Shown in pieces: positions 16,517-36,423 of a DNA stretch of 64,000 nt. The notes under the pieces were generated by a model. The model saw only the letters and a list, made by a program, of their open reading frames with translations. It was not told the DNA's origin and made no database searches. The DNA comes from a virus, in the IMG/VR virus record IMGVR_UViG_3300043465_002420; one strand, given 5' to 3'. How positions within the stretch are numbered: position 1 is the stretch's first letter; each line of letters begins with the position of its first letter. The translations under genes and the position numbers were made by a program.

Positions 16517-16985
16517 GACTATCTACAACCTTTGTGGTCATTTTACATCTGTTTTTATCAGCATCTAAAAATTCGTCTAAATTTTTAACACTTATAAGCG
16601 ACCAATGAGGATCATCCAATGGAACATATTCTTTTTTTGTGTAATAAAATGATTCCATTGTATACCTATAAACTTTATTCTCAACCTCTTCATCGGTCAT
16701 ACCACCAATTAAATCTTCACAAACTTCTTTACAAATTTTAATCGCATCTTGGTCTGTTGCACATCCTAACTTTCTCATAACTTGAACGGCAGCAAGTGCT
16801 TTATCTTTTTGCAAAAGATCTATAATGTTTTTTTTCATCATACCATCAATGAAATCTGCCCTTGCCATAAAACGAGCCATAATCTGACCTCGCTTTGGAG
16901 CAAATCTCCTCACATCAAAAAAATACTGCTCAAAGTTTTTTTCGTCAATAATCAATTCTTCAGACATTTTTTTCCTCTTTTGCAT
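16491..16985 (-). CDS. hypothetical protein
   Basis: 164-aa ORF downstream of dnaE-C. Confidence 0.6.
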   Translation of the reverse strand: MQKRKKMSEELIIDEKNFEQYFFDVRRFAPKRGQIMARFMARADFIDGMMKKNIIDLLQKDKALAAVQVMRKLGCATDQDAIKICKEVCEDLIGGMTDEEVENKVYRYTMESFYYTKKEYVPLDDPHWSLISVKNLDEFLDADKNRCKMTTKVVDSLDEKKQNE

Positions 16986-19701
16986 AATTTGAAAACTGTT
17001 CTAAAATTTCTTCTTCAGATAAATATTTATCTTCTTCAACTTCAGCAGGTTTCATCAAATATACCCTATAATCAGTTTCCTTCGTTGGAAACTTATAGAC
17101 CCATCTTTGATTAGGCAATTTTTTATTTTGCTCTAATGTGTATGTTGGAAACCCTTTATCTGGTGGCTGTAATCTTAATCTAACTAAGTTACCTTGTTCT
17201 AATTCTGAACCCCATCTTTTAAGATCGTCTTCCCAAATGTTTATTTTATTTTTTTCTCCCAAAGCATCTTCTACCTCCAATTGACAATAAGTTGTTCCTT
17301 TTTTACTTTTACACATTTTTTTAACAACTATTTCTACTTCAACTGGACAAATAACACCAATGTTTTCTTTGAATGCTTCGAATGTGTAACCTTTAAAATC
17401 CTTGCTCTTTTCCAAATTATGAGTCCAAGCAAATCCATAATACTTCATTTCACAAGCTACAATGCTTTTAAGTTCCTTTTCAAAATTTGGATCAATTTCA
17501 TAATCATTAGGATTAAATGCTTCGATAGTAGGTAACAATAATTTTTTAGACTCTTCAAGTCTTTCGATGCTTTTTAAATTTCTAACCCAAAGCTTTTTTA
17601 ATTCCTTTAACCTATTGAACACTTTATTAGTCTTTGTGATTTTATAATATCTTGTTTTTTGAACTTCAATAAAATCTTCAGTTCCTTCAATTGGAACATA
17701 AGTAATTTCCAATTTAGGTTCACCCTGACCCTTTTCACATTCGAATTTTCTTTCTGATTCTACCATTTCATTTACATCGTATTTTTCCCACTCGTCACCA
17801 TCAAATGGATTAGCTCCATGAAAACTATTCAACAATCTTGTCTCGTCAGGAAAAAGCTCTTTAAATTCTTCTTCGTATTGCGACATACTAACAGCGAATC
17901 TTTTCTTTTTATCTTCTATCTTTCTCGCACATTCTTTGTAGTGTTCGTAAAATTTCCACAATGTGATTGGATCAGATTCATTAAAACACCTCAATCCAAT
18001 CAAGCATTTTATAACACTAGCATCTGTGCCAAACTTAAAAAGAAAATCTCCAAATCCATTATATGGTTGACCAGAAACAATTTTTTCCGCTGGTGCTTCT
18101 CCAACACCCTTTATATTTGACAAGCCATAATAAATAACATCATCTATAAGCTCAAAATTTTTCTTAGACTTATTGATGTCAATCTTGTGCATCTCTATGT
18201 TGTGTCTTTTTGCTTCCATTTTATAGTCTTTAATCTTTTCGCTTAATGTTTCACAACTTAAAACGGCAGCATAAAACTCATGAGGATAATGAGCCTTTAA
18301 ATATAATAGACGAGAAGATACATAAGTGTATGCTACGGAATGACTTAGGTTGAATCCGTATTCTGCGAATGATTTTATCTGATCGAATAAATTGATTGCT
18401 TCTTCTTCAGATATGTTAAGATTTTTTTGACCTTTCTCTATGAACATAATTTCATATTTTTTAAAAGCCTCCGCTTTCTTTTTTGAAATAGCCTTTCTAA
18501 CAATTTCACAATCTCTGAATGGTATTTCTCCAACAACATTCAAAATTTTCATAATTTGCTCTTGGAAAACCATAACTCCATAAGTTTTTCCAAGAATAGG
18601 TTCAACAAGAGGATGCAAACTATATTCTTCGTTGCCCTTCTTCCTCTCAATATATCTTTCGTGCATTTTCATGTTCAAAGGGCCAGGCCTATAAAGAGCA
18701 GTGTATGCAACCAAATCCTCAAATGAATCAACCCCACCAGACCTAACTAATTTTCTAATGCCTTCCGAATCAAATTGAAAAATACATTTTAAATCGCCTT
18801 CATTTGCCATCTCTAGAGCTTTAGAATCATTACGCCATTTGATGATATCTGTCCAATCAGATTGGTTTGGCATGGCACAAATACTATCAATTGACTTTCT
18901 TCTTTTTACCAATTCACAACATTTACTGATTTGCATCAAATTAGAAATTACAAGTAAATCAAACTTAACCAATCCTACTGGTTGTAAATCTTGACCATTA
19001 AGACCTTCAACCCATGCAGATGCTTGTGGATTGTCTTTTCTCTTAACCAATGGAACAAGATCGTGTAGTGGAATAGAACTTATAATCAAACCACCAGCAT
19101 GTTGGCCCATACCTCTATTTCTATTTATAAGTCTTTTGGCTGCGTTTGATACATCTGGATACTTTTCACAATACTCTTTCAATTTTGGATATTGTGATAG
19201 TGCCACATCCCAAGTCAATGGTTTTCCCTCATCATCTTTTGCTTCAAGCTCTTTTGTAAGTTCAAGTATTTCTCCTCTTGCCTCTCCATGGACTCTAGCC
19301 ATATCAATCAAAGCACTCTTCATGCCAAATGTTGTGTAATTGCCAATATTGCAAACATATTCTTCGCCAAATGTTTCAGAAGCCCACTTGTTTTTCAAAT
19401 AATCTCTAACTTCAGAAAGATAATCGACATCAATATCTGGCATATCTCCTTGAACAAACTTAGGATCTTTATTGATATCAAAATCATCAACTATGCCCAA
19501 AATGTATGGAACTAAGATATTATTTTCATTCTTGGGGAATTTTTTCTTTTCTTTAAATAAATTCAAAAAATATTCTGACTTTCCTTGAATGTCAATTTCT
19601 TTAATTTCCCACTCAAGTCTTTTTTTATGCTTTTCACATAATTGTCTTCTTTTAAAGATGTGCCATAAAAGCTGTTCGATTTTTTGAACTGTCGTTAACA
19701 T
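16960..19701 (-). CDS. dnaE: DNA polymerase III alpha subunit, C-terminal part (palm catalytic Asps, thumb, fingers, HhH, OB); no PHP domain
   Basis: MPDIDVDY, GQHAGG, LVKFDLL, IFQFDS.G, ALYRPGP, TYGVMVFQEQIM, YGFNLSHSVAY, LKAHYP.EFYAA, GLSNIKGVG. Confidence 0.95.
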   Translation of the reverse strand: MLTTVQKIEQLLWHIFKRRQLCEKHKKRLEWEIKEIDIQGKSEYFLNLFKEKKKFPKNENNILVPYILGIVDDFDINKDPKFVQGDMPDIDVDYLSEVRDYLKNKWASETFGEEYVCNIGNYTTFGMKSALIDMARVHGEARGEILELTKELEAKDDEGKPLTWDVALSQYPKLKEYCEKYPDVSNAAKRLINRNRGMGQHAGGLIISSIPLHDLVPLVKRKDNPQASAWVEGLNGQDLQPVGLVKFDLLVISNLMQISKCCELVKRRKSIDSICAMPNQSDWTDIIKWRNDSKALEMANEGDLKCIFQFDSEGIRKLVRSGGVDSFEDLVAYTALYRPGPLNMKMHERYIERKKGNEEYSLHPLVEPILGKTYGVMVFQEQIMKILNVVGEIPFRDCEIVRKAISKKKAEAFKKYEIMFIEKGQKNLNISEEEAINLFDQIKSFAEYGFNLSHSVAYTYVSSRLLYLKAHYPHEFYAAVLSCETLSEKIKDYKMEAKRHNIEMHKIDINKSKKNFELIDDVIYYGLSNIKGVGEAPAEKIVSGQPYNGFGDFLFKFGTDASVIKCLIGLRCFNESDPITLWKFYEHYKECARKIEDKKKRFAVSMSQYEEEFKELFPDETRLLNSFHGANPFDGDEWEKYDVNEMVESERKFECEKGQGEPKLEITYVPIEGTEDFIEVQKTRYYKITKTNKVFNRLKELKKLWVRNLKSIERLEESKKLLLPTIEAFNPNDYEIDPNFEKELKSIVACEMKYYGFAWTHNLEKSKDFKGYTFEAFKENIGVICPVEVEIVVKKMCKSKKGTTYCQLEVEDALGEKNKINIWEDDLKRWGSELEQGNLVRLRLQPPDKGFPTYTLEQNKKLPNQRWVYKFPTKETDYRVYLMKPAEVEEDKYLSEEEILEQFSNYAKEEKNV

Positions 19702-22584: not shown

Positions 22585-23843
22585 AACAGTTCGTCCAGAA
22601 GTGGAAAAACTTCACCGATTCCTCCACGCAAATTCCCTACGAATACAAGCCAATATGCAAAGATTTACTTTTGCACGATGAAGAAATCGTTGTCGAAACA
22701 ATAGACATACTGAAAAGAAACATATCATCTTGGGCAGAAAAAAATTCCGAAGCTTACGCAAACAAAAAAGACCTTACTTTTTTAGGTAAAAATGATCTCA
22801 CAGACAAAGACAAGTGGTATGTAAAATCCTTAGAAAATGAATCCATGCCAATGAAAAGTAGCGGAAGCACCACTGGTGAGGGATTCGAATACTTGCGATG
22901 GGAACCTTTCCTTTATTTCATCGAAGGAGAAAACCACTATGATCTGATTCTGGATGAATATGAAATACCACAGAATCCAGACATCATGTACTTCTTTAAT
23001 TCTTCGTTCGGAAGTGGCTCAAGACACATAAACAATACATCGAAAAGCAAAAACTTTATGGAACATCACGGAACAAAAAGAACCGCAATGGTTCATTATG
23101 CAAACACGAAACTACAAAAAGAAAAAGAAGAAGTGTTTCGGAAATACCTATTCAGATATTTAAATTTAAAAAAAATGGATGTAATTTTTGCCCCAGGCCC
23201 ACAAATAAAAAAAATATGCTCTTATATAAAAAAGGAAAACTATAAAGGTAAACTGTGCAACTTGTTGAGCAATAGCAATGAAAAAATTCTGGATGAAGAT
23301 GCTAAATTCCTTCTCGAAAAAAATTATGTGTCACATATATGCGACCACATGAGGTGTTGGGATGGAGGAGCTTCCTTCTTCACATGTAGAGATAAGAACT
23401 ATCACTTAATGGATAACCTTTCTTGGTGTGTCGAAAATGAGGAAAGGCTCATATCAACCGATTACTTCTCCTTGGCTTGTCCTTTTGTCAAATTCTGGAA
23501 TGGCGACAGGTGCAAGATAGGCGATAAATATCAGAGATGTTCGTGCGGAAGGTTGTACAGAGATTTTAAATTCTTGGAGAATCGACCATTTGCCATAAAA
23601 GGGCATTCGATCAACGAGTACAAAAAGAAGCTCACGGAAACTGGTCTTACAGAGATAAAACAAGTGAATTGCGGAATCGACTTCATAGAAATCGTGTCGA
23701 ACAAAGAAATAGATCCTATCAAAAAAAATGAAGTTGCCGAAATATTTAAGTCTCACAAATTGAAATTCAAAGTTGTTCCAGACCAATTGGCATCGCAAAA
23801 AATTCATAACAGAACTCCATCTGAAAAGGTGGAAACAAAATGA
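22563..23843 (+). CDS. PaaK/CapK/LuxE-like acyl-adenylate ligase (ANL superfamily)
   Basis: SSGSTTG P-loop; NGDRCKIG...CSCGR..LE.R C-terminal motif typical of phenylacetate-CoA ligase family. Confidence 0.65.
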   Translation: MRNTQEIKQFVQKWKNFTDSSTQIPYEYKPICKDLLLHDEEIVVETIDILKRNISSWAEKNSEAYANKKDLTFLGKNDLTDKDKWYVKSLENESMPMKSSGSTTGEGFEYLRWEPFLYFIEGENHYDLILDEYEIPQNPDIMYFFNSSFGSGSRHINNTSKSKNFMEHHGTKRTAMVHYANTKLQKEKEEVFRKYLFRYLNLKKMDVIFAPGPQIKKICSYIKKENYKGKLCNLLSNSNEKILDEDAKFLLEKNYVSHICDHMRCWDGGASFFTCRDKNYHLMDNLSWCVENEERLISTDYFSLACPFVKFWNGDRCKIGDKYQRCSCGRLYRDFKFLENRPFAIKGHSINEYKKKLTETGLTEIKQVNCGIDFIEIVSNKEIDPIKKNEVAEIFKSHKLKFKVVPDQLASQKIHNRTPSEKVETK

Positions 23844-26800
23844 TAGATCCAAAACTGGTGAAAAAATGGGATATAGTTTTCGCTCTACAAGAAAAGGGAT
23901 GTGGGTATTTCGCAACATATGAAGCAGTAGTCATTGTGCCACGACCTTGTACCGGAGGGTCAAGTGCTTATTGGACTCTTGCTTCTCCTTGCCCAGATGG
24001 TTGCACATCTTCTCCTCCTCCTCAATTGCCAACAAATCCTCCATGCGATCCTAATTACCCTGACAATGGAACGGAAAATGACATAATCGGGTGCTGCGAA
24101 GGTATAGTTTCAGTCGAATGCTCCGGCACTTGCTGTAAATGCGGTGGTGTAGAGTGTTTGACAACGGAGACATGCTGTGACGATGTTTGTGTGAACTTAC
24201 AAACAGATCGTGACCACTGTAATTCTTGTACCACCCCTTGCAATCCAGATCAAGACTGCTGTGATGGCGAATGCAAAAACATATACGAAGACAGCAATAA
24301 TTGTAATGGTTGCGGAAATGTTTGCCCTGAAGCTACACCAACTTGCTGCAATGGTGATTGCTGCACGACAGCGAATTGTTGTTTCGTTGATGACATCCTT
24401 ACTTGTATTGATGTAACAAACAATCATGATCATTGCGGAAGATGCGACAATCCTTGTGCAGCCGAAGAAACATGCTGTTCTGGTGAATGCGTCAACACAC
24501 AGACAGATAATGAGCATTGCGGATCATGTCCGAATGCTTGTCCTGTCGCATTCACATGCTGTTCTGGTGTATGCAAAGAATTATTTGGGGATGATCGTTT
24601 AAATTGTGGCGATTGTGGCAAAACTTGCGTTGTAGGAGAAATATGCAAAAACGGTGTTTGCAAAGACGCTTGTGCTGCGAACGACTGCGAGTTTACTTGG
24701 GTTGATCCTCCGGGTTGTTGTAGCCGTTATGTCTGTTCGACTGAAAATGAGTATGCGTTTTCTTCTTCATACACTTCAATTACAGATTGCTCTGTCGATA
24801 GCCCTCCAAATATACCTTGCGATGGAAGCCCAGAATCTACAGGTTATTTTTACCTTACATGGAGTCCAGAGCCGTGTTGTACTGGATCTTGTCAATCTTT
24901 TTGTCTAGAACCAACTTGCACTTGGTCAGGTCCAGAAAACTCTACTTGTGGAGAGGGTTGTGCTTGCCAATCATTTGAAGGTCAACCTTGTGCATGTGGA
25001 ACACTCAGAGACGATCCATGTATAAGAACAGTAGTACCTCCCGGACAATGGAATGCAACTGCGACATGTCCACAAGGATGCAACTGCCCCGGGAACGCCC
25101 CAATACAAAATGGAACAAATGGTCAAGTAGTCAGTTACGAATGCGTCAATTGCCTTGCTCCATGTGAAGCAGGAGAAAAATGCTGTTTCGGCACATGTAA
25201 AAACATACTGACAGATCCTCTTAATTGCGGAGATTGTGGAAACAATTGTGGCGATCAGATTTTGGGAAACAAATGCTGTAATGGGAAATGCGTAAACATA
25301 CTTACAGGGGATTTAAACTGCGGAGATTGCACAACTGTATGTCCATTTCCAGAAGTATGCTGCAATGGCGTATGCAAAAATCGTAACACTGACAATTACA
25401 ACTGCGGATCTTGCGGTTACGAGTGCCAGACTGGAATTGGGGAAACCTGCTGCAATGGGATTTGCGTAAACGAAAATACCGACAGAAACAACTGTGGCTC
25501 CTGCGGATTTACATGTCCCAACGCAGATCAGTGCATTGATGGAAACTGCGTTCCATGCGTTCCTCCATGTCTAGAAGCTGGTACGGCTTGCTGCAACAAT
25601 CAGTGCATCGACATATTGTCTGACGAGAGCAACTGCGGTGGTTGCAATATACCTTGTGCTGGCAAGTGCTGCGGTGGCATTTGCGTATTAGATTTGAACA
25701 CCATGTTTAACTGTGGTGATTGCGGAATAGAGTGTCCGCAATTGATCAACCAAATCAATCTGTGGCAGTGCTGTAACGGTCAATGCAAGAACCTAAAAAC
25801 TGATCCAGAAAACTGCGGATTTTGCGGAAATGTATGTCAAGAACCTCCGGGTGACACATTTACAGTTCCAAAATGTTTCTTGGGAAACTGTGCGGAACCA
25901 GAATGCGATTGTCAAGGATATGAAGCTGGAATGCCACCACAACCTGGGCCAGACGATGTGGCTTTCGTGGCTTCATGCGTTGGAAACACGGTAAGTTGTG
26001 ATGGATCTTGTTATTTCAATGCTGTAGGCGGAGGATGGGTTCTGTATGAAGAGCCGGGCGGAACTGGATTTTCTGGTACCTGCGGAAAAGAACCAGATTA
26101 CACATATTGCGTTGATGACAAATATGCATGTGTGGATGACAAATATGTTTGTGTCGGAGATATATATTATTGTGTAAAAAACATAGAAGGACAAGATATG
26201 CCAACTTATTGTATACCTGCTGCATCGTTTAACGCTGAAACACAAGCACTAATCGGATCTTACATCGGAGCAGAAAACTGTGCCGCTGGTTGTAGCGGTG
26301 ATGGAAGCGAGTGCGATCCTGCTTGTGGCAATGGATTAACCTGTTGTGATACACAATGCGTAGACACGCAAACTGACAGTGCCAATTGCGGTGGTTGTGG
26401 TGGCGGTCCTTGTGCTGCTGGCGAGGCTTGCAAAGATGGAGTTTGCACAGGATGTACGCCTCCATGTGCCGATGGTGAATCGTGCTGCGAAGGTGGAACG
26501 ACATGCTGCGAAACTTGCTGTGCTGACGCATGTTGTCCAACTGGTCAATCATGTGTTGATGGAGTGTGTGCCACATGCGAACCACCTTGTACTGCTGGAC
26601 AAACCTGCTGTGGAGGATCATGTTGTGATGCTGGAATAATATGCTGTGACCAAACATGTTGTGCTGAAGGTGAGTTCTGCGAAAACGGAAGTTGTGCAAC
26701 ATGCAACCCAGTGTGCTATCCAGACGAGACATGCTGCGATGCAACATGCGTTAGGTGGCAATGTGGAGAATGCCCAAATGCATGTGCTTCTGCTGAAATA

Positions 26801-28204
26801 GTTTGTTGCGGTTTGCCGGGTCAAGAAGTATGTTGTCCTGAAGGTCAAACTTGTGTTGAGAATGCGTGTTACGGATGTACACCTCCTTGTTCCGAAAGTC
26901 AGGATTGTTGCGATGAGGTATGCACAGAAGTTGGAACAGACACAAATTGTTCGGGTTGTGGTGACGCTTGTGGAGAAGGAACAAAATGCTGCGATAAAGT
27001 GTGTACTGCTACTGGAACTGACACAAACTGTTCGGATTGTGGCGATGCTTGTGCCGAAGGTCAGAGTTGTTGTGATGATGTATGCACAGAAATTGGAACC
27101 GACACAAATTGTTCGGGTTGTGGTGATGCTTGCACAGACGGAAAATGTTGTGAGGGAGTGTGCAAAGAAACACAAACCGACAATGAAAATTGTGGCGATT
27201 GCGAAAATGTATGTAATACAGCAGAAGGTGAAAAATGTGTTGCTGGAGTATGTGTTACTTGTGATCCACCTTGTACTGGACTTGATGTATGTTGTGATTT
27301 AACATGCTGCAAAGTTTGTTGCGGTCCAGAAGGTAGTAAGACATGCTGTGCTGAAGGAAAAATCTGTTTAAATGGTCAGTGTAGCGGTTGTGAACCAGAA
27401 TGTACAGAACCTGGACAAACTTGTTGCACCAATCCTAATCAGCCTAATCCTACAGAGGAGGAACCAAGTCCACCAATAGGACAATGTTGCCCTGCTGGAG
27501 TTCTTTGTTGTGCTGGTGGATGCTGCCCTAATGAAAATTTTTACTGTTGTGATAACAAAGTATGTTGCTTCAATGATCGTGCTTGTTGCAATGGAGTTTG
27601 CTGTGCTGAAGGTAAATTCTGCAATAATGGCGTGTGTGCTGATTGTAATCCAACATGCTACTCTGATGAAAAATGTTGTCCTGGAACTACTGGTAGCGGG
27701 GAATGTATTAGGTGGCAATGTGGCGATTGCCCAAATGCATGTACACGATTCCAAACATGCACCAATAATGTTTGTTGCGATGCAGTAACGGAGGGTCCAC
27801 TATCAGGGCAAACTGGTGTAGGTTGCGGAACTGTTTGTTGCGACCCCGGTATCACATGTTGCCGAGACATTTGTTGTTTAGACCCTGACGAAGAATGTTG
27901 CGATGGCTTTTGCGTAAATACCAATTCTATCGACAATAATAATTGCGGAGGTTGTGGCCAGCCATGTGTCGCTCCAGCAACTTGTTGTAATGGTTCGTGT
28001 AGAACAGTTTTTGCAGACACTTCTAGTTGCGGAAGTTGCGGGAATACATGTTCACTTGGAATGCTTTGCTGCCCTGATAACGGTGGCTGCGTTTACCCAT
28101 CGTATTTAAATTGTGGTAGTTGCGGAAATGAATGTGAAGTAGGACAATCATGTTGCCCAGATGAACAAGGCGGTCACACATGCTTGGCTCAAGGTTCATG
28201 TTAA
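23840..28204 (+). CDS. 1454-aa cysteine-rich repeat protein (Stig1-like / MXAN_6577-like repeats)
   Basis: Many C(V/K)xxxTDxxNCGxCGxxC and CC repeats; ATGA overlap with the upstream ligase; terminator follows. Confidence 0.85.
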   Translation: MIDPKLVKKWDIVFALQEKGCGYFATYEAVVIVPRPCTGGSSAYWTLASPCPDGCTSSPPPQLPTNPPCDPNYPDNGTENDIIGCCEGIVSVECSGTCCKCGGVECLTTETCCDDVCVNLQTDRDHCNSCTTPCNPDQDCCDGECKNIYEDSNNCNGCGNVCPEATPTCCNGDCCTTANCCFVDDILTCIDVTNNHDHCGRCDNPCAAEETCCSGECVNTQTDNEHCGSCPNACPVAFTCCSGVCKELFGDDRLNCGDCGKTCVVGEICKNGVCKDACAANDCEFTWVDPPGCCSRYVCSTENEYAFSSSYTSITDCSVDSPPNIPCDGSPESTGYFYLTWSPEPCCTGSCQSFCLEPTCTWSGPENSTCGEGCACQSFEGQPCACGTLRDDPCIRTVVPPGQWNATATCPQGCNCPGNAPIQNGTNGQVVSYECVNCLAPCEAGEKCCFGTCKNILTDPLNCGDCGNNCGDQILGNKCCNGKCVNILTGDLNCGDCTTVCPFPEVCCNGVCKNRNTDNYNCGSCGYECQTGIGETCCNGICVNENTDRNNCGSCGFTCPNADQCIDGNCVPCVPPCLEAGTACCNNQCIDILSDESNCGGCNIPCAGKCCGGICVLDLNTMFNCGDCGIECPQLINQINLWQCCNGQCKNLKTDPENCGFCGNVCQEPPGDTFTVPKCFLGNCAEPECDCQGYEAGMPPQPGPDDVAFVASCVGNTVSCDGSCYFNAVGGGWVLYEEPGGTGFSGTCGKEPDYTYCVDDKYACVDDKYVCVGDIYYCVKNIEGQDMPTYCIPAASFNAETQALIGSYIGAENCAAGCSGDGSECDPACGNGLTCCDTQCVDTQTDSANCGGCGGGPCAAGEACKDGVCTGCTPPCADGESCCEGGTTCCETCCADACCPTGQSCVDGVCATCEPPCTAGQTCCGGSCCDAGIICCDQTCCAEGEFCENGSCATCNPVCYPDETCCDATCVRWQCGECPNACASAEIVCCGLPGQEVCCPEGQTCVENACYGCTPPCSESQDCCDEVCTEVGTDTNCSGCGDACGEGTKCCDKVCTATGTDTNCSDCGDACAEGQSCCDDVCTEIGTDTNCSGCGDACTDGKCCEGVCKETQTDNENCGDCENVCNTAEGEKCVAGVCVTCDPPCTGLDVCCDLTCCKVCCGPEGSKTCCAEGKICLNGQCSGCEPECTEPGQTCCTNPNQPNPTEEEPSPPIGQCCPAGVLCCAGGCCPNENFYCCDNKVCCFNDRACCNGVCCAEGKFCNNGVCADCNPTCYSDEKCCPGTTGSGECIRWQCGDCPNACTRFQTCTNNVCCDAVTEGPLSGQTGVGCGTVCCDPGITCCRDICCLDPDEECCDGFCVNTNSIDNNNCGGCGQPCVAPATCCNGSCRTVFADTSSCGSCGNTCSLGMLCCPDNGGCVYPSYLNCGSCGNECEVGQSCCPDEQGGHTCLAQGSC

Positions 28205-29011: not shown

Positions 29012-30374
29012 TTATAAATCAAAACAAATAGATCTACCGCCTCTAGCCTCAGACATGAATCGACTAAACAAAAGACCTTCAAATACTGGATCAACATCAG
29101 TAATTCCAAGACAATAGCAAATCAAAGAACCACAAGCACTTCCCCTGCCTGGCCCCACAGCTTGAGTTCCATCACCACCTATATTCTCTTTGCACCACTT
29201 TCTTGCCTCATCAGTCATCATTTTTTGAATAAGAAAATATGTACTAAATCCTTTTCGAGTAATAAGACTTAATTCTTCAATTATTCTGTCTTTATATTCT
29301 TTGGTCTTAGGCAAGTTTCTCTGCTTGAATCCTTGTATGACTAAATCTTTAAGCTTTTCGTCACAATCAGGCAAAATTGGTAATTTTAAACTTCTATCAA
29401 GTTCAACTCCTTTTGCCATTCTGCAAATCTCTACTGTATTCTTTTTAGCTTCACAAAAAATTTCATATGGAATAACATCACTATAATCTTTAGCCCATTT
29501 TTCGTTAAGTTCTTCCTCTGACTTCATCCATAAGTTGGCATCTTGCAATTCAAAAAAGTCTTTCATGGCATCTTCTTTCATTGCCTTTTGAATTTCTTGA
29601 ATTGTTCTATTTGTCTGTACCATTAACATAAGTCTTTGAAAGTGACTATCTTCCTTTCGACAATAATGACAATCATTTGTAAGAATTATTTTTAATTTAT
29701 ACTTTTCATAAGCCTTGATGATAAATGCATCATAAGGCTTTTGTTTGACAAAATCTAAAAGCATAATTTCAAGAAAATAATTATCTCTACCAAACATCTC
29801 AATGTATCTTTCAATCATTTGAAATGCAGCTTCTTCACCACCAGAATCAAATGCTCTACCAACTTCGCTGTTATAGCAACAACTAGTAAAAAACAAACCT
29901 TCTTTATGTTTCTCAAGTTGTTCGTAATTTACTCTTGGCTTTCTATAAAATCCTTTTGTCCATCCCCAAGATGTAAGTCTTACTAGGTTTTTATAACCTA
30001 TTTCACTATGTGCAATCGCAAGAAGATGTGGACTAGCTCTCAATTCCTTTAATTCTATTTCGTTTAAGTTTTTAGAGAAATTTTGCATGTCTTGCAAAGA
30101 ATCACTTGATGGCTGTAACCTATTAACATATAGTTCTGCTGCGAATATAGGAGAAAGTTTGTTTTTACCAAACTTATCACAAATTTTCTCACAAGCTTTT
30201 ATTTGTCTTGGAACAGCACCCAACATGCCATGATCACTAATAGTTAAAAAGTTTTGATTGATTTGGGTAGCTCTGAGTGAATATTCCTCACAAGTACCAA
30301 ACCCATCTAAAACAGAAAAATCGGAATAACTAATGAAGGTGGAGATGTTCGAAACCGACAATCTCCACCTTCAT
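29012..30374 (-). CDS. dnaE: DNA polymerase III alpha subunit, N-terminal part (PHP + start of palm); reading frame interrupted by UAG and a 7-nt gap after codon 14
   Basis: HLHLH | SDFSVLDG, TISDHG, AAELY, PHLLAIA, TSCC, TNDCHY, LWMKSEEE, GPGRGSACGSL, FSRFMSEAR; SD AAGGAG before ATG 30374. Confidence 0.9.
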
Positions 30375-30375
30375 T
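30332..30375 (-). promoter_or_regulatory. perfect 15-bp hairpin covering the dnaE-N start codon and ending at the internal UAG (candidate recoding element)
   Basis: aatgaaggtggagat (30332-30346) / atctccaccttcatt (30361-30375), 14-nt loop. Confidence 0.8.
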
Positions 30376-30414
30376 GGAACTCCTTTCATAAATGTCATTG
30401 TTCAATCCTTTTGT

Positions 30415-30666
30415 TTACTTCCAGAGTTTATATTTTTCATACACTAGAGCTTCGCAATCCATAATTGCAATTCTTCTAGCGTACTTTCTTGGGGATAGGT
30501 ATATTTTTTCGTCATCTTCATTAGATTCATCAGGCTTTACTTCACGCTCCATTGATATTAAATCATCAAGGATTTCAAGTGCTGTATTTTTTTCTATCTG
30601 ATTAACTTTGTGAAGATGAAAAGCAAAAAACAATAAAAACAAAAAAGGAAAAATTAATTTTTTCAT
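30415..30666 (-). CDS. membrane-anchored hypothetical protein
   Basis: 83 aa, hydrophobic N-terminus. Confidence 0.6.
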   Translation of the reverse strand: MKKLIFPFLFLLFFAFHLHKVNQIEKNTALEILDDLISMEREVKPDESNEDDEKIYLSPRKYARRIAIMDCEALVYEKYKLWK

Positions 30667-30800
30667 TTTTGTTCTTTTTCAAAAAATGAATCATTGAAAG
30701 TGGCCATTTTGTAAATCACTCCCATTGCTACGGCTATTGAAACCAAAAGTATGGAAAATGAACCTACAAAAAATCCAATCCAGAAATTAAGATCAAACAT
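30663..30800 (-). CDS. 45-aa membrane peptide (not in ORF track)
   Basis: AAGGAG SD; MFDLNFWIGFFVGSFSILLVSIAVAMGVIYK...; ATGA overlap with the next gene. Confidence 0.55.
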   Translation of the reverse strand: MFDLNFWIGFFVGSFSILLVSIAVAMGVIYKMATFNDSFFEKEQK

Positions 30801-30873
30801 TAATTGCTACTCCTTGTAGTGTGTCAAATCATCCTGATATAATATACCAAAAAAAATATCAAAGTAAACTAAT

Positions 30874-31095
30874 CTATTTTGCTTTGGTTAATGACTTTTG
30901 ATCATCTGTTTGAGTTTTCTTCCATTTTTCAAATTCTTCTTGAAGAACTTGAGCCTGTTGCTCTAATTCTTTAAGTTTTGTTTGAGATTTATCGTAATAA
31001 TCTTTTAATTCTTGTTTTAATTTCTTCTTTTCACCATAAATGTCAGACACTTTTTGTGAAAAAGATACAAATTCTTCGCTCAATAGCCAATCCAT
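30874..31095 (-). CDS. small coiled-coil protein
   Basis: 73 aa heptad-rich. Confidence 0.6.
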   Translation of the reverse strand: MDWLLSEEFVSFSQKVSDIYGEKKKLKQELKDYYDKSQTKLKELEQQAQVLQEEFEKWKKTQTDDQKSLTKAK

Positions 31096-31103
31096 AATTC
31101 ACC

Positions 31104-34100
31104 TTACCTTTTTGCTCGTATTCTTACATTTAAAGGATCATTGTCAAAACACTCAAAAACGATTTCGCTCCCATCATGACCTTTGGTCGATAGAAACACA
31201 TCGTTTTGCCAAATAAACCTTAAAGAACAAAGAACATCACGAACATAAGGCTCGTATAGTGTTCTTCCCTCATAATTATGCTCCAACATAAGATAACCTT
31301 TGCCACGATAATTTGGCTCAGTCAATCTAATATCTGGCAATCCACCATTAACATGCCTTGCCATAAGGAGTTTTTTTATTTTTTTATATTCATGACTTTC
31401 CAAGATTGTATCACCACTTGGATATTTTTTATATTCAAAATATTCTTGCTCTCTGCAAAAATCTTCAGTAAAAAATTCATGTATCAAAGTTAGATCATCG
31501 TAATACTTTCTAACTTCAAATATTTTTTCTTTTCCTAATTTTGCATTTGTATCCCAATTTTCTTTTTTGGTTGAATTTGTGCAATCATCCCATTCAGTTC
31601 CAAATTGGCCTTTATCCCATCTTTTTCTTATGTCCGAAAGAAGATTATAGCCTAGCTTATATGGATTAGTGCTATATTTTCCTCCAAGAACACCCATCTT
31701 ATGTGCAGCATATTCTATGATTCCATCATCATGTGTTTTCTGGCCCAATGAAACATAACCCTGTTCTGCCATAATGACATGGTCGGTCATACTATTATGA
31801 TTCATAAATCCACAAGCCGAATATCGATGACTTGTTTCTACTGTAATGTCATACACTGTATCTTTTCCAATTTTTTCGATAGAAATAATTTCATCTTCAA
31901 GTTTTTGATCAATAAACCATTTATGATTGTCAATATACTTCTTTAACTTTTGCTGTTTTCTAGATAATCCAAAACCTATTTGCTCATAATACTTTACCGC
32001 TTCCTGTCCGGTTATGCGTACATGCCAACAAGAATCTTTTTGTTTGCGTCTTGTTGATAATATGCAAAAATTCAACAAAACATTTTGTATTTGTCTGGAA
32101 AGAACTTCGCTTGCGGTGGAAAGAATAACACCAGCATCCCCCGCATAACCATCACAATCAAAATACGATCTTACAAAAGAAGCGATAACACTCTTGGGCG
32201 ATTTAAGAATAATTTCTGGTATTTGCTTAATCCTAGCACAGACTCCAGTTTTCATTCCCAAATAAACAAGTAGTTCTTCAAGTTCTTTTGAAGTTACAGA
32301 AATTCTATATCGACCATTTTTAGATGTGTCATCCCAACGAGATTTACAATCTATATTAAATAATTTCTTTGTAAGACGAATATAATTATCAGCTTGATCT
32401 TTATCTCCAGTTGTTAAGCCAAGAGTTCTCTTGCTTTTAGATATATGACCATCTCCAATCATATATCCAACAAATGAAGCAAATTCTTCATCCATAGAAA
32501 AAGGTAAAGATATACATTTTCTTTTATTTCTCATGCATGTCATAGACTGATCATCATATTGCTTGAGCAATTTGTCTAAATTGTCATTTTTTTCTTCACC
32601 TTTATAATGATATTTTCTATAAACGACTTGAGACATAGTCGCTGATGCTTTTTTACAGATTTGCTTCAATTCTATCCTTTTATTGGGCAATTTATAATCG
32701 ATTTTTTGATATTTTTTCGTCCAAATATTTGAAAACGATATTTTAACTTTTTCTCCTACATTCATTTTATCAAGACGAACCCAATCATTATCACCCATAA
32801 CTCTATGATTATTTGAACCCTCAAAAACATATCCTCTTCTAGTTTCAATCCTATAAACATCACGATTTTCAAAAGTGAACCAATTTGTCACATTTCTAGA
32901 TTTTTCACCATCATAAACCATAACAGGCAACTTTTTATCAACAATTTCACCTAATGTCAAAATGCCCATATTTGTAGATACAAGAGAATCTCTTCGTCCG
33001 CAAGCCCACCCCTCGTTTAATACCTTGGTTTGTCTCTGTGGGAAAAAATAAATTGATTCCTCATAGATCATAGACATAATATCTTGCTGCCATGGCTTCA
33101 ATGGAGCATTATCACGCAAGAATCCAAAAACATCTTTAACTGGTTCAATAAAAAATCCAAGCTCTTCTGCCAAATCTTTATCTTTAACCTTTTCGTTTTC
33201 TTTATCTTTAAAATCTTTGGTGTTGATATAAGAATCCATATAAAGTCTATCATTGCCAACTTTTAGTCGCCTTGGAAAACGATAATTTTTTTTATCAATA
33301 ATGTTTTTATCTTTAATTACTTTTTGATGCCAAGCTGATGCACCATCAATTAAATTGTCGATGCGAAGCAAATAATCAAGAAATTCAGTAACCTTTTCTT
33401 TACCCCATCTAGCCATATATTTTCTTATACGACTCGCATGATTCGCCATGTTATTCAACATATTTGTGTCAGTGGCAGAAAAATGAATATTATTTTTAAA
33501 GAAATCATTATGACCAGTAGCGTGAGCGATAACTGTCAAATGATCCAATAGAGTATTGCTATCTAAGCAATAGATGTAGCAAGGTGATGTATTATGGGTA
33601 ATCAATCCATATGCAATAAAATCATGAGAATCATGATCCAATGCAATATCAACAGTTTCGATCTCATCTCCATCAACAACATGCTCAACAACAAATAAAG
33701 GATTTGAAATAATATCTTTAATTTCATTTGGAACACTTAATCCTTGATTTTCTGCTCTTTGTACAAATGAAGAAAAAGAATTAATCCCAACTTTTTGTTT
33801 CTCGAACATTTTAATTGAATAACCAAGACTATGGTTGTTATATGTTGTGATTCCTACACTTTTTGCCCACATAATCAATTGTCGTTGAATGTAAGGCAAC
33901 TCCATTCCAGAACTACGACAAAATTTTCTATCAAGTAATTTTTTAAGTAATTCTTGCTTATAGTTAAGCACAAAACCTATTCTATTGTAAAATTTATTTT
34001 CAGCCCAAATTCCCTTAATTTTAACAACATTAATATATTTTTGATCACCTTTTTTACCCTTGCCATTTTTCAATGTTTTTAAATTAGAAAGAATTCCCAT

Positions 34101-35213
34101 TTCCGAAAGCATAATCTGAACATCATCTGCCAATTTCTTATTATAACAACTAAAACCAACATGGTCAGCTACATAGCCATCAGTATCGAACAAACCACGA
34201 ATAAAAGCACATCTATAGGCAGGAGGAGACTTCCAAATAATATCTGGAATTATTTTTTCCTTAAATGTTTTACCTTTCTTTAAACCAATCGAATTAACAA
34301 AATCAACTGCGTTTTTTGAGCATAATGTTACATTGAAACAATTTGGTTTTTCGTAAATCTCTGCAACAACTCCAAATACCTTTTTAAATAAATCTACAAC
34401 ATGTTCTGCATATGTCCTGTGTTTTTTACCAACAGCAACGGTTAACATATTTTCAGCAGACTTTACTCCTATCGACCCATCTCCAACCAAAATTCCAAGA
34501 AGTTCCGCCAATTCTATCGTAATATGATTCGGTGGATAAATTTCTTTAATACAATGCCTAATGTTGGGCCTTGTTGATTCAAAAACTTGTTCGGATGACC
34601 AATCAATTCTTGGTGCATCCCAATTACTTTCATATGAATCAGTTCCTACAAAAATATCACCAGATACAACATCCGATGCTTTTTTCCAGATTAAACCATT
34701 ATTAGAAAGAACACGCCATTTGTGATTTGGCGTACATACTAATGTTTGGCCATCTTTCAAACAAATTTTCTTAGTTTTAGAAGCGTTTTGTCTCTTTGTC
34801 GCAACAACATTCCTAGTTTCATTACCAACAATAACTTGATCGCCTACCTTCACATCTCCAGCTATAATTGTACCACGCTTAGTCAAAACTGGAGCATTAA
34901 GTTCACAGCAATTGATTACCATTTCATATATCTTATGCATTTGATTTTCATATCCACGCTGCAATTCTTCATATTGCATGCCAAACGACCAATGTGGATA
35001 TCGTACTGGAAAACCACCATAAGCTGCTACTTCAGAGATTTCATCGTAGGTAAGAAGTTGCACTACAGTTGGATAAAAGTCTAAACCCCAATCTCTACAA
35101 ACATTCAAAATTATTTGAGCATGTTCTTTTAATTGTTTTGGAAGTTGAACACCAGGAATAGTGTTATCGCCAATAAGAAGAGAAGAGCCATGCATAAACT
35201 TGTTAGAAGACAT
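31104..35213 (-). CDS. spoVR: SpoVR/YcgB family protein with two inteins
   Basis: GLDFYP, YGGFPVRYPHWSFG, YEMVIN|TSPC, AHATGHNDFFKNN, TKVLNEGWA|S, NPYKLG, LPDI; exteins rejoin to the SpoVR consensus. Confidence 0.92.
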   Translation of the reverse strand: MSSNKFMHGSSLLIGDNTIPGVQLPKQLKEHAQIILNVCRDWGLDFYPTVVQLLTYDEISEVAAYGGFPVRYPHWSFGMQYEELQRGYENQMHKIYEMVINCCELNAPVLTKRGTIIAGDVKVGDQVIVGNETRNVVATKRQNASKTKKICLKDGQTLVCTPNHKWRVLSNNGLIWKKASDVVSGDIFVGTDSYESNWDAPRIDWSSEQVFESTRPNIRHCIKEIYPPNHITIELAELLGILVGDGSIGVKSAENMLTVAVGKKHRTYAEHVVDLFKKVFGVVAEIYEKPNCFNVTLCSKNAVDFVNSIGLKKGKTFKEKIIPDIIWKSPPAYRCAFIRGLFDTDGYVADHVGFSCYNKKLADDVQIMLSEMGILSNLKTLKNGKGKKGDQKYINVVKIKGIWAENKFYNRIGFVLNYKQELLKKLLDRKFCRSSGMELPYIQRQLIMWAKSVGITTYNNHSLGYSIKMFEKQKVGINSFSSFVQRAENQGLSVPNEIKDIISNPLFVVEHVVDGDEIETVDIALDHDSHDFIAYGLITHNTSPCYIYCLDSNTLLDHLTVIAHATGHNDFFKNNIHFSATDTNMLNNMANHASRIRKYMARWGKEKVTEFLDYLLRIDNLIDGASAWHQKVIKDKNIIDKKNYRFPRRLKVGNDRLYMDSYINTKDFKDKENEKVKDKDLAEELGFFIEPVKDVFGFLRDNAPLKPWQQDIMSMIYEESIYFFPQRQTKVLNEGWACGRRDSLVSTNMGILTLGEIVDKKLPVMVYDGEKSRNVTNWFTFENRDVYRIETRRGYVFEGSNNHRVMGDNDWVRLDKMNVGEKVKISFSNIWTKKYQKIDYKLPNKRIELKQICKKASATMSQVVYRKYHYKGEEKNDNLDKLLKQYDDQSMTCMRNKRKCISLPFSMDEEFASFVGYMIGDGHISKSKRTLGLTTGDKDQADNYIRLTKKLFNIDCKSRWDDTSKNGRYRISVTSKELEELLVYLGMKTGVCARIKQIPEIILKSPKSVIASFVRSYFDCDGYAGDAGVILSTASEVLSRQIQNVLLNFCILSTRRKQKDSCWHVRITGQEAVKYYEQIGFGLSRKQQKLKKYIDNHKWFIDQKLEDEIISIEKIGKDTVYDITVETSHRYSACGFMNHNSMTDHVIMAEQGYVSLGQKTHDDGIIEYAAHKMGVLGGKYSTNPYKLGYNLLSDIRKRWDKGQFGTEWDDCTNSTKKENWDTNAKLGKEKIFEVRKYYDDLTLIHEFFTEDFCREQEYFEYKKYPSGDTILESHEYKKIKKLLMARHVNGGLPDIRLTEPNYRGKGYLMLEHNYEGRTLYEPYVRDVLCSLRFIWQNDVFLSTKGHDGSEIVFECFDNDPLNVRIRAKR
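31794..33002 (-). mobile_element. intein 2 (403 aa) with LAGLIDADG homing endonuclease
   Basis: Starts CGRRDSLVSTNMG; FEGSNNHRV; FVGYMIGDGH and FVRSYFDCDG; ends VYDITVE...MNHN followed by +1 Ser. Confidence 0.9.
33591..34910 (-). mobile_element. intein 1 (440 aa) with LAGLIDADG homing endonuclease
   Basis: Starts CCELNAPVLTKRG; block B LVCTPNHKW; LLGILVGDGS and FIRGLFDTDG; ends GLITHN followed by +1 Thr. Confidence 0.92.
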
Positions 35214-36423
35214 TATCGGACTCCGTATTCAATTTAGCTTTTGATTTATCTGAACCCATTAATTTTTGAATAGCTTCTAATATTTGTTGATTTCTTTTTT
35301 CTTCTGTTAAAACAGCACCACCTTCTGCATTTATTTCAGTGGTCTTAATATTTTCTCTATTAAGATCTCCCTTTTCCAAAGCTTGATCAACTACATTTTT
35401 TATTGAGTTTGCGTAATTCCAAGGAAGTATTTGTGTTATTCCAACAAGATTTACGATTCTTTCTCCAAATGATTCTTTTAATGTGTTTATAAAAACTTGA
35501 TTATCTTCTTCCCAATTGTCGCCATCGGTAAAATAAAATACATATATATTCCATTTTTCTGGGGGATATCGATTTTCAAATTGCTTAGAAATGAATTTCA
35601 AAGCAGAGCTACAAGTAGTGCCACCGCCAAATCTATAATTATAAAATTTTTCTTCATCTACTTCCATAGCAGAAGAATCATGCCAAACAAAAAGTCTATC
35701 TACTCTTTTGTAAAATCTTCTAATCCAAACATCAATCCACCAAGCCATATCAGAAACTATTTCGCACTTTTGCTGATCCATACTTCCAGATCCATCTCTA
35801 GCATATATGATCAAAGCATTACTTGAAGGAACTTTAATTTCCTTGTATTGCCTATATCTTTTATCTCTTTTTATTGGCTTGATTGCCTTAATTGGATCTT
35901 TGCATCCTGGTACTATTTCCAAATCATTTATAGTTCCATCTGCTGCTTGTCTTTTTAGAGCTTCTAAAAATGTTCTTCTGTTATGCCTTAGTGATTCTGG
36001 GCCTACTAAAGATATGTTGTTATATTTTATTTTTACTTCATCAAATGTGTCGCTTACTTTTGGCTTTAGATTTGGAAGTTCTAATTCTCCCTGCATGAAT
36101 TTTAAAACTTCTTCAAGGTCAAGACTTATGGTAATTCCTTCACTTTCATCTTGACCAGCACCATTGCCATTACCCTTGCCCTTTTTGCCCTTGTCGATCA
36201 CATCGCCATCTTTGCCTTTTCCTCTTCCTGTTCCATTTCCATTATCGCCATAAAGGATTTGCGGAATATCGATTTTTGGAATGGATATCGATATTTTACC
36301 ACGCTTACCTCTAGACTTAACAATTTGGCCACTTTTGATAAATTTCTTTAGAGCTTTGCGTAGCTTGCCAGAAACAACATCAATAAAATCTTTGTGGTCT
36401 TCTTCAATTCTTCTAGGACACAT
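35203..36423 (-). CDS. yeaH: YeaH/YhbH (DUF444, vWA-like) family protein
   Basis: ISIPKIDIP, ELELPNLKPK, RYRQY, DGSGSM MIDAS-like, GGGTTCSSAL, WNIYVFYFTDGDNW. Confidence 0.9.
   Translation of the reverse strand: MCPRRIEEDHKDFIDVVSGKLRKALKKFIKSGQIVKSRGKRGKISISIPKIDIPQILYGDNGNGTGRGKGKDGDVIDKGKKGKGNGNGAGQDESEGITISLDLEEVLKFMQGELELPNLKPKVSDTFDEVKIKYNNISLVGPESLRHNRRTFLEALKRQAADGTINDLEIVPGCKDPIKAIKPIKRDKRYRQYKEIKVPSSNALIIYARDGSGSMDQQKCEIVSDMAWWIDVWIRRFYKRVDRLFVWHDSSAMEVDEEKFYNYRFGGGTTCSSALKFISKQFENRYPPEKWNIYVFYFTDGDNWEEDNQVFINTLKESFGERIVNLVGITQILPWNYANSIKNVVDQALEKGDLNRENIKTTEINAEGGAVLTEEKRNQQILEAIQKLMGSDKSKAKLNTESDNVF

Follow-up and report, generated by a model that had tools for sequence, protein, structure and literature searches.

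Natural, required translational bypassing is known in very few systems, namely T4 gene 60 with its homologues, a yeast mitochondrion and the terminase of a Streptomyces phage. In T4 gene 60, the bypassed stretch is 50 nt long and lies within the element of the HNH homing endonuclease MobA; the take-off codon is followed by UAG and accompanied by a 5' stem-loop, and pairing of the exiting mRNA has been proposed as the driver (bioRxiv 10.1101/2022.08.31.505936; 10.1101/2024.12.09.627546). This bypass belongs to the MobA element, gives protection against MobA and in many cases persists after the endonuclease has gone (bioRxiv 10.1101/2022.08.31.505936; 10.1101/2024.12.09.627546), and the gene 60 cassette was still termed unique in 2022 (bioRxiv 10.1101/2022.08.31.505936). 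In the mitochondria of Magnusiomyces capitatus, short non-coding inserts in conserved genes (byps) are reported to be skipped in translation (Lang et al. 2014), and a short non-coding insert in a conserved gene is also skipped in the bypass of the phiHau3 terminase g6/7 (PMC10732093).

Here, we analyzed a window of 64 kb (the whole stretch of DNA examined, part of a 165-kb record). Its source is an uncultured giant phage, in which the interruption of dnaE was confirmed: 14 codons after ATG 30374, the gene is broken by 7 bases opening with a stop codon. On comparative grounds, we consider it probable that this is a short programmed translational bypass (ribosomal hop) and the stranded remnant of a homing-endonuclease cassette; the dnaE element is best read as an independent counterpart of T4 gene 60/mobA. 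Its features are as follows.

30396..30398, minus strand: upstream in-frame ATG, the likely true start, with no stop in between; it adds MTFMKGVP (8 residues) before MKVEI
30380..30386, minus strand: AAAGGAG, Shine-Dalgarno-like, coding K-G of this extension; a similar sequence is conserved in gapped variants
30361..30375, minus strand: 5' arm of the hairpin, AAUGAAGGUGGAGAU, which includes ATG 30374 (fold, covariation)
30374-30372, minus strand: ATG inside the hairpin, from which frame 0 reads MKVEIVGFEHLHLH
30347..30360, minus strand: hairpin loop of 14 nt, coding (I)VGFE
30332..30346, minus strand: 3' arm of the hairpin, AUCUCCACCUUCAUU, coding HLHLH and ending on the U of UAG
30335-30333, minus strand: CAU (His), proposed for take-off and the final sense codon in frame 0; CAY then stop in 28 of 28 gapped variants
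30332-30326, minus strand: 7-nt coding gap UAGUUAU (window sequence; 5-8 nt in relatives)
30332-30330, minus strand: stop UAG in the gap; UAG, UGA or UAA here in 28 of 28 gapped variants
30329-30326, minus strand: UUAU, the rest of the gap (window sequence)
30328-30326, minus strand: proposed landing triplet UAU; 14 of 18 distinct gaps end in NAY
29012..30325, minus strand: resumed dnaE-N frame, from SDFSVLDG to its stop, with the PHP domain and the first part of the polymerase palm (Pfam, alignment)
16960..19701, minus strand: dnaE-C, the split polymerase's second gene, covering the remainder of the palm (Pfam position 100 onwards)
30421..30914, minus strand: 494 nt where close relatives carry a 262-aa HNH gene, which the window has lost (blastn of the window against L004)

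The dnaE element and gene 60 have much in common. In both, a stop stands directly after the take-off codon, the cassette brings an N-terminal extension, the site falls within an essential replication enzyme, in a metal-binding region of high conservation, and the putative bypass is tied to a free-standing HNH endonuclease whose gene has often disappeared although the bypass stays; by analogy, the peptidyl-tRNA would be retained and re-paired downstream. On the other hand, the dnaE gap is 5-8 nt rather than 50 and has neither a stem-loop nor a Shine-Dalgarno sequence, both of which matter in gene 60. Landing would mostly be on a near-cognate triplet (NAY) and not on a copy of the take-off codon, and the take-off codon is the 22nd from ATG 30398 (17th to 30th in relatives), compared with codon 46 in gene 60. 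Furthermore, the take-off codon lies inside the dnaE 5' hairpin, which covaries and is conserved better than any other feature, whereas the 5' stem-loop of gene 60 relatives is not conserved. Finally, the gene is dnaE and not a topoisomerase, and the endonuclease has no Pfam match.

Reading along the minus strand, dnaE consists of MKVEIVGFEHLHLH, UAG, UUAU and then SDFSVLDG in the +1 frame, and the layout given in the initial annotation (frame-0 stop, 7-nt gap, resumption in +1) is exact in the window. The resume frame opens at 30325 with UCC GAU UUU UCU GUU UUA GAU GG and ends at 29012 (ORF 29012..30361). In Pfam analysis, this ORF matched positions 6-162 of 164 of the PHP model, the first motif being absent, as well as the first 98 of 260 positions of DNA_pol3_alpha; in a continuous relative, the PHP match begins at model position 1. 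Taking out the 7 nt gives HLHLH-SDFSVLDG, identical to continuous relatives such as L007, which agrees with the earlier claim that a 7-nt skip yields canonical PHP spacing. We infer this joined product from the sequence; a DnaE-N made by hopping would carry VEIVGFEHLHLH covalently joined to SDFS. Residues D7, D31-H32, E64, H100, C149, D218 and H220 of DnaE-N were invariant in the alignment of relatives. The division of dnaE into two genes is kept in relatives, where the halves lie 1-2.6 kb apart. Only one PHP domain could be found in each of five related records, but all records are incomplete (28-52%) and a second polymerase gene is therefore possible.

The perfect 15-bp stem described between the AUG arm and the HLHLH arm was recovered: AAUGAAGGUGGAGAU and AUCUCCACCUUCAUU form 15 uninterrupted base pairs (30375-30361 with 30346-30332), which join the AUG region to the HLHLH codons. 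The 111-nt context folds with -36 kcal/mol (z = -3.9), none of 200 shuffles folding as well, and the stem is one of 14 inverted repeats in the whole window. In addition, GGAGU of the AAAGGAG region is predicted to pair with AUUCC (30327-30323) in an outer helix. The hairpin was present in all 28 gapped variants and absent from 37 of 38 continuous relatives (mean dG -21.7 vs -6.8 kcal/mol), and some of this co-occurrence may stem from a common origin of the cassettes. It should be noted that one continuous relative, L067, has no gap and still carries a 14-bp hairpin, which counts against the bypass reading. Among 21 distinct aligned sequences, the 12-bp core of the hairpin was 100% paired, and four core pairs showed double compensatory changes, with the observed score reached by 0 of 500 shuffles. 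Because the core contains G-U pairs while no cell is unpaired, this pattern points to the sense-strand RNA. Variable positions in the 3' arm were all synonymous for HLHLH and compensated in the 5' arm. Changes in the loop among gapped relatives were almost only at third codon positions, which indicates that the loop is translated; judging from these substitutions, the piece upstream of the gap is under protein-coding selection.

No cassette-specific hairpin was found 3' of the gap (mean dG -8.6 kcal/mol in gapped and -9.9 kcal/mol in continuous sequences). A gap-internal stem-loop starting from the take-off site is absent, 7 nt being too short to hold one; long-gap relatives do have a stem-loop within the gap. 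An Rfam search of 29900-30800 gave no meaningful match, the sole one reaching 22.5 bits against a gathering score of 55. We also considered a constant spacing from AAAGGAG to the landing triplet with the hairpin looped out, and rejected it: among three variants checked by hand, this distance was ~6-7 nt in two and ~0 in L160.

Further investigation of relatives revealed 28 distinct sequences from independent metagenomes in which a stop (UAG, UGA or UAA) stands directly after HLHLH and is followed by 2-5 more bases. The gap is 5 nt long in one of them, 6 nt in one, 7 nt in 12 and 8 nt in 14, covering all three frames, and skipping it always restores the spacing of 39 continuous relatives. This architecture recurs down to ~50% DnaE identity in many independent samples. 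The same 7 nt occur on a contig of a different sample (L003/L116), with synonymous differences just downstream, which shows that the gap is not an assembly artefact. The suggestion that related genes might keep stop, gap and a compensated hairpin was thus borne out in 28 of 28 gapped sequences and by the four doubly compensated pairs. In two further classes (D and 6-nt L), the take-off would sit two or six codons further on, and there, too, the 5' hairpin has a 3' arm that stops on this shifted codon or a few bases from it. A GenBank phage search found no cultured relative; in the nearest phage record, LR756511.1 (52.7% identity), the 5' end of dnaE is continuous.

The start of dnaE is probably ATG 30398, upstream of the hairpin. 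An in-frame ATG lies 12-25 codons ahead of the first His in all 28 distinct gapped variants and 7-10 codons ahead of it in most continuous relatives, and an N-terminal extension with K-G was found in every gapped variant. With such a start, the hairpin would be translated through and not merely gate initiation at 30374, as had been supposed.

In the mechanism that we propose, ribosomes would start at ATG 30398, melt the hairpin while translating it and arrive with CAU (His) in the P site and UAG in the A site. During slow termination, the 5' arm, already outside the ribosome, would re-pair with the 3' arm leaving the exit channel, and this zipping would drag the mRNA ~7 nt forward and pull the take-off codon off peptidyl-tRNA-His. 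The tRNA-His (anticodon G/Q-U-G) would then re-pair with the A and Y of UAU, and decoding would restart at UCC, giving ...HLHLH-SDFSVLDG..., that is, an intact first metal-binding motif of the PHP domain. According to fold computation, the hairpin does not win over other folds until 5 nt or more of the 3' arm are free, and its stability is -5.9 to -13.5 kcal/mol when 5-8 nt of this arm are exposed. The hop predicts the junction peptide HLHLHSDFSVLDG, whereas a +1 shift predicts HLHLHSYSDFS and frame-0 termination alone would give a 22-residue product.

The core of the earlier interpretation, a hairpin-assisted short hop from CAU over UAG and 4 nt to the resume codon next to UAU, has strong comparative support, whereas its secondary inferences (RF1, gating of initiation and a UUG isoform) are less well supported. 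A dependence on RF1 would not be general, as relatives have UAG, UGA and UAA, and neither would an isoform from UUG 30361, since the resume frame lacks ATG, GTG and TTG alike in 8 of 16 variants. The idea of a near-cognate landing stood in part. Of 18 distinct gaps, 14 have NAY just ahead of the resume codon (cognate CAY in two), which fits re-pairing of tRNA-His, but the other four gaps end with CUU, CUU, GUC and CAA; anticodon re-pairing therefore cannot alone set the landing site. A special tRNA-His, for example with an expanded anticodon loop, was not found in the 165-kb record, where only tRNA-Arg(UCU) is encoded. Reassignment of the stop codon was rejected: with UAG as a sense codon the frame would still be wrong, and all three stops occur among relatives.

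Other explanations of the broken frame were weighed against the hop. There might be no recoding at all, with frame 0 stopping at UAG and DnaE-N being made without HxH from an internal or non-canonical start, or with the 22-residue peptide complementing it in trans; the hairpin would then serve otherwise, for example by terminating or stabilising the endonuclease mRNA or by repressing dnaE translation. UUG 30361, preceded by AAGGUGGAG, does exist in the window, the hairpin and the outer helix bury AAAGGAG and AUG 30374, and the polymerase is already split in two genes, which suggests that the family tolerates pieces. Nevertheless, we find this explanation unlikely. The lack of any start codon in the resume frame of half of the variants checked excludes independent initiation in those variants, and the first downstream ATG would delete DFSxLDG. 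HLHLH and loop codons change only synonymously, with the 5' arm adapting, which would be unexpected for a dispensable peptide, and the hairpin's 3' arm tracks the take-off codon to new positions in the remaining gap classes. Quite improbable, in our view, is conventional frameshifting or readthrough, which would add 2-3 residues after HLHLH by a +1 shift (7-nt gaps), a -1/+2 shift (5- and 8-nt gaps) or stop readthrough (6-nt gap). An A-site stop is known to stimulate +1 shifts, prfB being an example, and the resume frame is open across the gap in every variant checked. However, three different mechanisms would be needed for one conserved architecture, and with gaps of 5, 6, 7 and 8 nt a simple +1 shift cannot apply generally, as relatives need +1, +2 or 0. 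No slippery sequence is present: a +1 shift on CAU_U gives AUU, and tRNA-His cannot re-pair at AUU or GCA. Besides, the gap 'codons' vary as amino acids (SY, LVY, LAN, LVD, DH, LN and others), whereas all 39 continuous relatives, like the Pfam PHP model, share one HxHxH[ST]D spacing.

Removal or correction of the 7 nt before translation, by RNA micro-excision, editing or transcriptional slippage, seems highly improbable. Group I introns at a neighbouring site in relatives show that RNA-level removal is a solution used in this family, but a self-splicing intron cannot be built from 5-8 nt, no match to an Rfam family was obtained, and the site has no homopolymer run on which transcription could slip; no bacterial system is known to excise a piece of such size. 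A recent inactivating mutation or an assembly error has nothing in its favour except the broken frame itself and is barely conceivable, being refuted by 28 distinct sequences from many samples, extending to ~50% identity and showing compensatory changes.

The initial annotation overlooked the HNH-cassette context, including introns or longer gaps at the same site in sister alleles, and it is the remnant of such a cassette that best explains why the gap exists. The gapped and continuous states are scattered over the DnaE tree, with at least 12 changes forced by well-supported branches, and near-identical DnaE proteins differ in state (sister pairs L063/L126, L066/L064 and L061/L124). Comparison of L063 with L126 revealed a ~930-nt insert holding a 269-aa ORF with a PHROG HNH endonuclease match (7.7e-14) and the motif WHIDHIFP...NL.P...N..K; Pfam and PDB sequence searches gave nothing significant for it, and its HNH assignment is based on the aligned motif together with PHROG matches. 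Homologues or remnants of this ORF were found upstream of H-, D- and L-gap alleles and intron alleles, and of no continuous allele. The 262-aa HNH endonuclease gene noted above belongs to L004, a close relative with 88% DnaE identity. By tblastn, no homologue of the endonuclease could be detected in the 165-kb record; thus, the window appears to hold a cassette remnant. On the basis of these distributions, the element behaves as a mobile cassette. The HNH endonuclease, encoded by the upstream gene in relatives, would target the stretch of gap-free dnaE coding for HLHLHSDFSxLDG; a few inserted bases would protect the carrier allele, and the bypass would keep the polymerase working. If this is true, selfish endonucleases can protect their carrier allele by a handful of bases that are removed at the ribosome.

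The element also resembles other described phenomena. Weiss et al. reportedly found in 1987 that short hops in E. coli are inefficient without stimulators, and the classic hop of that work is said to be Leu-stop-Leu, which the L-gap relatives resemble (CUU UAA CUA, CUC UAA CUU and CUU UAA CUU). The distance of a few nt, the A-site stop and the re-pairing at a similar codon would be shared with those hops. In contrast with them, as laboratory constructs or low-level errors, the dnaE hop would be indispensable to an essential gene, change frame and have a dedicated hairpin. Among relatives, GC-rich hairpin gaps of 40-48 nt (L060, L130, L140, L157, L170, L068 and L066) are similar to byps in size and shape, whereas the gap of the window is far shorter, has no internal hairpin and concerns a single gene in the 165-kb record. 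'Collaborative homing', in which a free-standing endonuclease acts together with a group I intron, is attributed to Bonocora and Shub (2009). Similarly, L104 and L181 have a homologous HNH gene upstream of dnaE and a group I intron in the same stretch, but the interruption in the window would be removed by the ribosome and not by splicing.

Sister alleles contain group I introns or hairpin gaps of 15-48 nt inside the same 12 codons; the introns occur at the same site in five relatives (75-110 bits in Rfam). We lean, with reserve, towards a wider reading, a second, independently evolved family of endonuclease-linked bypass cassettes in giant-phage dnaE, characterized by a spring hairpin, a landing set by A-Y and repeated immunisation. 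In such a family, a hairpin at the take-off codon would re-zip behind the ribosome and pull the mRNA 5-8 nt over the stop in any frame, and the landing would be set by two bases (A-Y) that tRNAs for His and Asp (G/Q-U-N anticodon family) can pair with. Bypass would have 'immunised' the 12 codons in at least three ways, with take-off after His, Asp or Leu and gaps that are short or 15-48 nt long, and group I introns would be a further immunisation of the same codons. This would provide a natural series from minimal to gene-60-sized bypass signals.

If the short hop is real, a minimal bypass signal would consist of a hairpin, a stop and a near-cognate triplet within ~60 nt, and dozens of natural variants, compensatory ones included, would be available. 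Since the dnaE 5' hairpin is the dominant conserved feature and not a doubtful one, the driver of the forward movement of the bypassing ribosome would become directly testable. It would also be a warning for annotation: such dnaE genes would not be pseudogenes, and their start would not be the first downstream start codon. The 165-kb record was scanned for hairpins ending at a stop with another frame open downstream, which gave nine candidates. No other such element was present in the record, so the phenomenon is not genome-wide; among the nine candidates, the dnaE site was the only one at which the resume frame is closed upstream and has no ordinary gene start.

The dnaE-N gene, the first gene of a split DNA polymerase, lies in a window that corresponds to bases 74912-138911 of a 165,207-bp IMG/VR virus record (34% complete by CheckV, ~31% G+C). 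The sequence was re-read, and the initial description of an ORF, a gap made up of UAG and UUAU, a +1 resume frame and a 15-bp stem proved correct in every detail. The features are as follows:

30374, minus strand: ATG start of frame 0, opening MKVEIVGFEHLHLH
30332-30330, minus strand: UAG stop, the codon right after MKVEIVGFEHLHLH (from sequence)
between UAG and the resume codon, minus strand: the four bases UUAU (from sequence)
30375-30361 and 30346-30332, minus strand: AAUGAAGGUGGAGAU and AUCUCCACCUUCAUU, forming a perfect 15-bp stem with a 14-nt loop, whose last stem base is the U of UAG
16960-19701, minus strand: remainder of DnaE, a separate gene (Pfam)

The resume stretch, UCC GAU UUU UCU GUU UUA GAU GG, encodes SDFSVLDG in the +1 frame of the minus strand, which is open down to 29012. 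Pfam matches its product to a PHP domain, starting at model position 6, and to the DnaE palm domain (260 positions), of which the first 98 are covered. The split between the two halves (29012-30361 and 16960-19701, 9.3 kb apart) falls exactly between palm-domain positions 98 and 100, and no intein was detected by Pfam at the junction. In relatives the gene is divided identically, its halves lying only 1-2.6 kb apart, and in two distant DnaEs (L110 and L115) the N- and C-part matches adjoin on one strand.

From public viral and metagenomic contigs, three rounds of searching yielded 191 loci encoding DnaE-N relatives, many of them retrieved repeatedly, from which 73 distinct anchorable 5' ends were classified. 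The motif HLHLH[ST]D[FY]S.LDG was continuous in 39; in 28, a stop codon (UAG, UGA or UAA) right after HLHLH was followed by 2-5 more bases; four had gaps of 40-41 nt and two were not classed. Among the 28, gap lengths were 5 nt (one), 6 nt (one), 7 nt (12) and 8 nt (14). An assembly error or a recent private mutation, either of which the initial annotation recognized as fatal to its proposal, is excluded: the gap is real and recurs in 28 distinct sequences, and the window's 7 nt recur in a contig of a different sample, with synonymous differences immediately downstream. The closest GenBank record is 52.7% identical and has a continuous dnaE; the search turned up no cultured relative. Five related records, all incomplete, contain one PHP domain apiece.

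Skipping the gap restored the spacing of continuous relatives in every case, and the gap 'codons' were not conserved as amino acids. A single frameshift mechanism was ruled out because gaps occur in all three frames. With regard to initiation within the resume frame, half of the variants examined (8/16) had no ATG, GTG or TTG in that frame upstream of the resume codon, and initiation at the first downstream ATG would remove the DFSxLDG motif. Variation in the loop codons of gapped alleles (I-V-G-F-E) was almost exclusively third-position, all variable positions of the HLHLH arm were synonymous (CUC/CUU, CUU/UUG/CUG, CAU/CAC), and non-synonymous changes in the 5' arm preserved pairing with the HLHLH arm. 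From these observations together we infer that the upstream piece is translated and is part of the DnaE protein. Since an in-frame ATG is present 12-25 codons ahead of the first His in all 28 gapped variants (30398 in the window), translation probably begins upstream of the hairpin and passes through it; most continuous alleles have such an ATG 7-10 codons ahead.

The 111-nt context of the window hairpin had a folding energy of -36 kcal/mol (z = -3.9). Related alleles also keep the stop, gap and hairpin with compensatory changes, a point raised by the initial annotation: in all 28 gapped variants, which have the stop, a stem of 9-15 bp was predicted by folding over the same codons, and mean hairpin energy was -21.7 kcal/mol, compared with -6.8 kcal/mol in 38 continuous variants. 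When 21 distinct sequences were aligned without gaps, every cell of the 12 core pairs was paired and four pairs had changed on both sides, a degree of covariation that none of 500 shuffles reached. Sliding the partner by 1-3 columns reduced pairing from 87% to 35-54%. The core includes G-U pairs and no unpaired cells, as expected of sense-strand RNA. The sole exception among continuous alleles, L067 (1440-1506), has a 14-bp hairpin and an N-terminal extension with no stop or gap, and has probably lost the gap precisely. Most variants show pairing between the gap bases and a stretch 5' of the main stem, beside a conserved AAAGGAG. An outer helix (30323-30327 with 30379-30383 in the window, in the same places in relatives) pairs the gap and resume codon with the sequence that separates AAAGGAG from the main stem; with the stop codon included, it reaches eight perfect pairs in the relative L004 and seven in L043.

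The triplet before the resume codon was NAY (UAU, UAC, AAC, GAC, AAU, CAU or CAC) in 14 of 18 distinct gaps, and CUU (twice), GUC or CAA in the others. Because the first two anticodon bases of tRNA-His can pair with A-Y, NAY triplets fit re-pairing, although such landing would not be an absolute rule. The native hairpin became the most stable fold only once at least 5 nt of its 3' arm were free (-5.9 to -13.5 kcal/mol with 5-8 nt freed), and 5-8 nt is also the range of the gap lengths. When the take-off CAU occupies the P site, the ribosome would enclose the 3' arm (-11 to +3 from the first base of CAU), with the loop and 5' arm outside; the stop codon would delay the A site, and zipping of the hairpin could pull the mRNA forward. 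The same kind of driver has been proposed for T4 gene 60. Across the gene 60 family, however, the 5' stem-loop shows no conservation, whereas here the 5' hairpin is the most conserved signal. Overall, sequence comparison makes it rather likely that an HNH homing-endonuclease cassette left this gap behind in dnaE and that ribosomes cross it by a short, programmed translational bypass. No similar element was found elsewhere in the 165,207-bp record, which encodes no unusual tRNA, and no Rfam family matched the gap region.

Mapped on a tree built from 67 DnaE-N proteins, the His-gap state needed 15 changes, at least 12 of them forced by well-supported branches, and nearly identical proteins differed in gap state. 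Compared with the continuous L126, the gapped L063 has a ~930-nt insert directly upstream, holding a 269-aa ORF that matches the PHROG HNH endonuclease (7.7e-14) and endonuclease VII; alignment with seven homologues revealed zinc-ribbon repeats and, at the C terminus, the motif WHIDHIFP...NL.P...N..K. Homologues or decayed remnants were present upstream of His-, Asp- and Leu-gap and intron alleles, and none upstream of continuous alleles. The closest gapped relatives of the window (L004 group, 88% identity) carry the endonuclease; in the window, 494 unrelated bases (30421-30914) take its place, homology restarting 19 nt before the endonuclease stop. In T4 mobA/gene 60, the bypass insert shields its carrier from the endonuclease and often outlives it. 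The distribution in dnaE follows the same pattern, with a presumed endonuclease target.

Other alleles were interrupted two or six codons further along the motif. After H[ST]D, gaps of 40-47 nt with a GC-rich hairpin occurred in L060, L178, L130, L140, L157 and L170. After S.L, six loci (L037, L042, L046, L102, L165 and L169) had a 6-nt in-frame insert separating S-V-L from D-G, the stop being flanked by matched Leu codons (CUU UAA CUA, CUC UAA CUU or CUU UAA CUU); L087 had a 15-nt gap (CUU UGA ... CUC), and L068 and L066 had gaps of 46-48 nt, L066 combining an 8-nt His gap and the long Leu gap ten codons apart. The 15-48-nt gaps have internal hairpins and include lengths (40, 41, 46 and 47 nt) that are not multiples of three; by sequence they resemble bypass elements of gene 60 size. 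A 5' hairpin is present in the Asp class and the 6-nt Leu class as well, and its 3' arm stops at the new take-off codon or no more than a few bases away; in the 6-nt inserts, a 12-bp hairpin ends just ahead of that codon. Five relatives have group I introns in the same HxHxHSDFSxLDG stretch (Rfam RF00028, 75-110 bits):

L095, 1119-1345: group I intron
L104, 1258-1492: group I intron
L181, 1269-1496: group I intron
L152, 1267-1492: group I intron
L099, 1225-1487: group I intron

L104 and L181 each carry a free-standing homologous HNH gene, located upstream of dnaE and not within the intron. L180 (1480-1520) also has an upstream HNH gene and is one base short at GAU UUU C, so that HSDFSLLDG would require the ribosome to shift -1 on U UUU C; this could be a further 'site disruptor' or a sequencing error in a homopolymer.

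Elsewhere in the window, a 1369-aa SpoVR-like gene (31104-35213, minus strand) contains intein splicing and LAGLIDADG domains (Pfam) and, together with 35203-36423 and 36460-38532, makes up a prkA/DUF444/spoVR set in a phage genome. Between the dnaE halves, 23840-28204 (plus strand) encodes a 1454-aa protein in which a Stig1-like cysteine repeat occurs ten times; it lies in a region whose G+C is 45%, compared with ~31% elsewhere.
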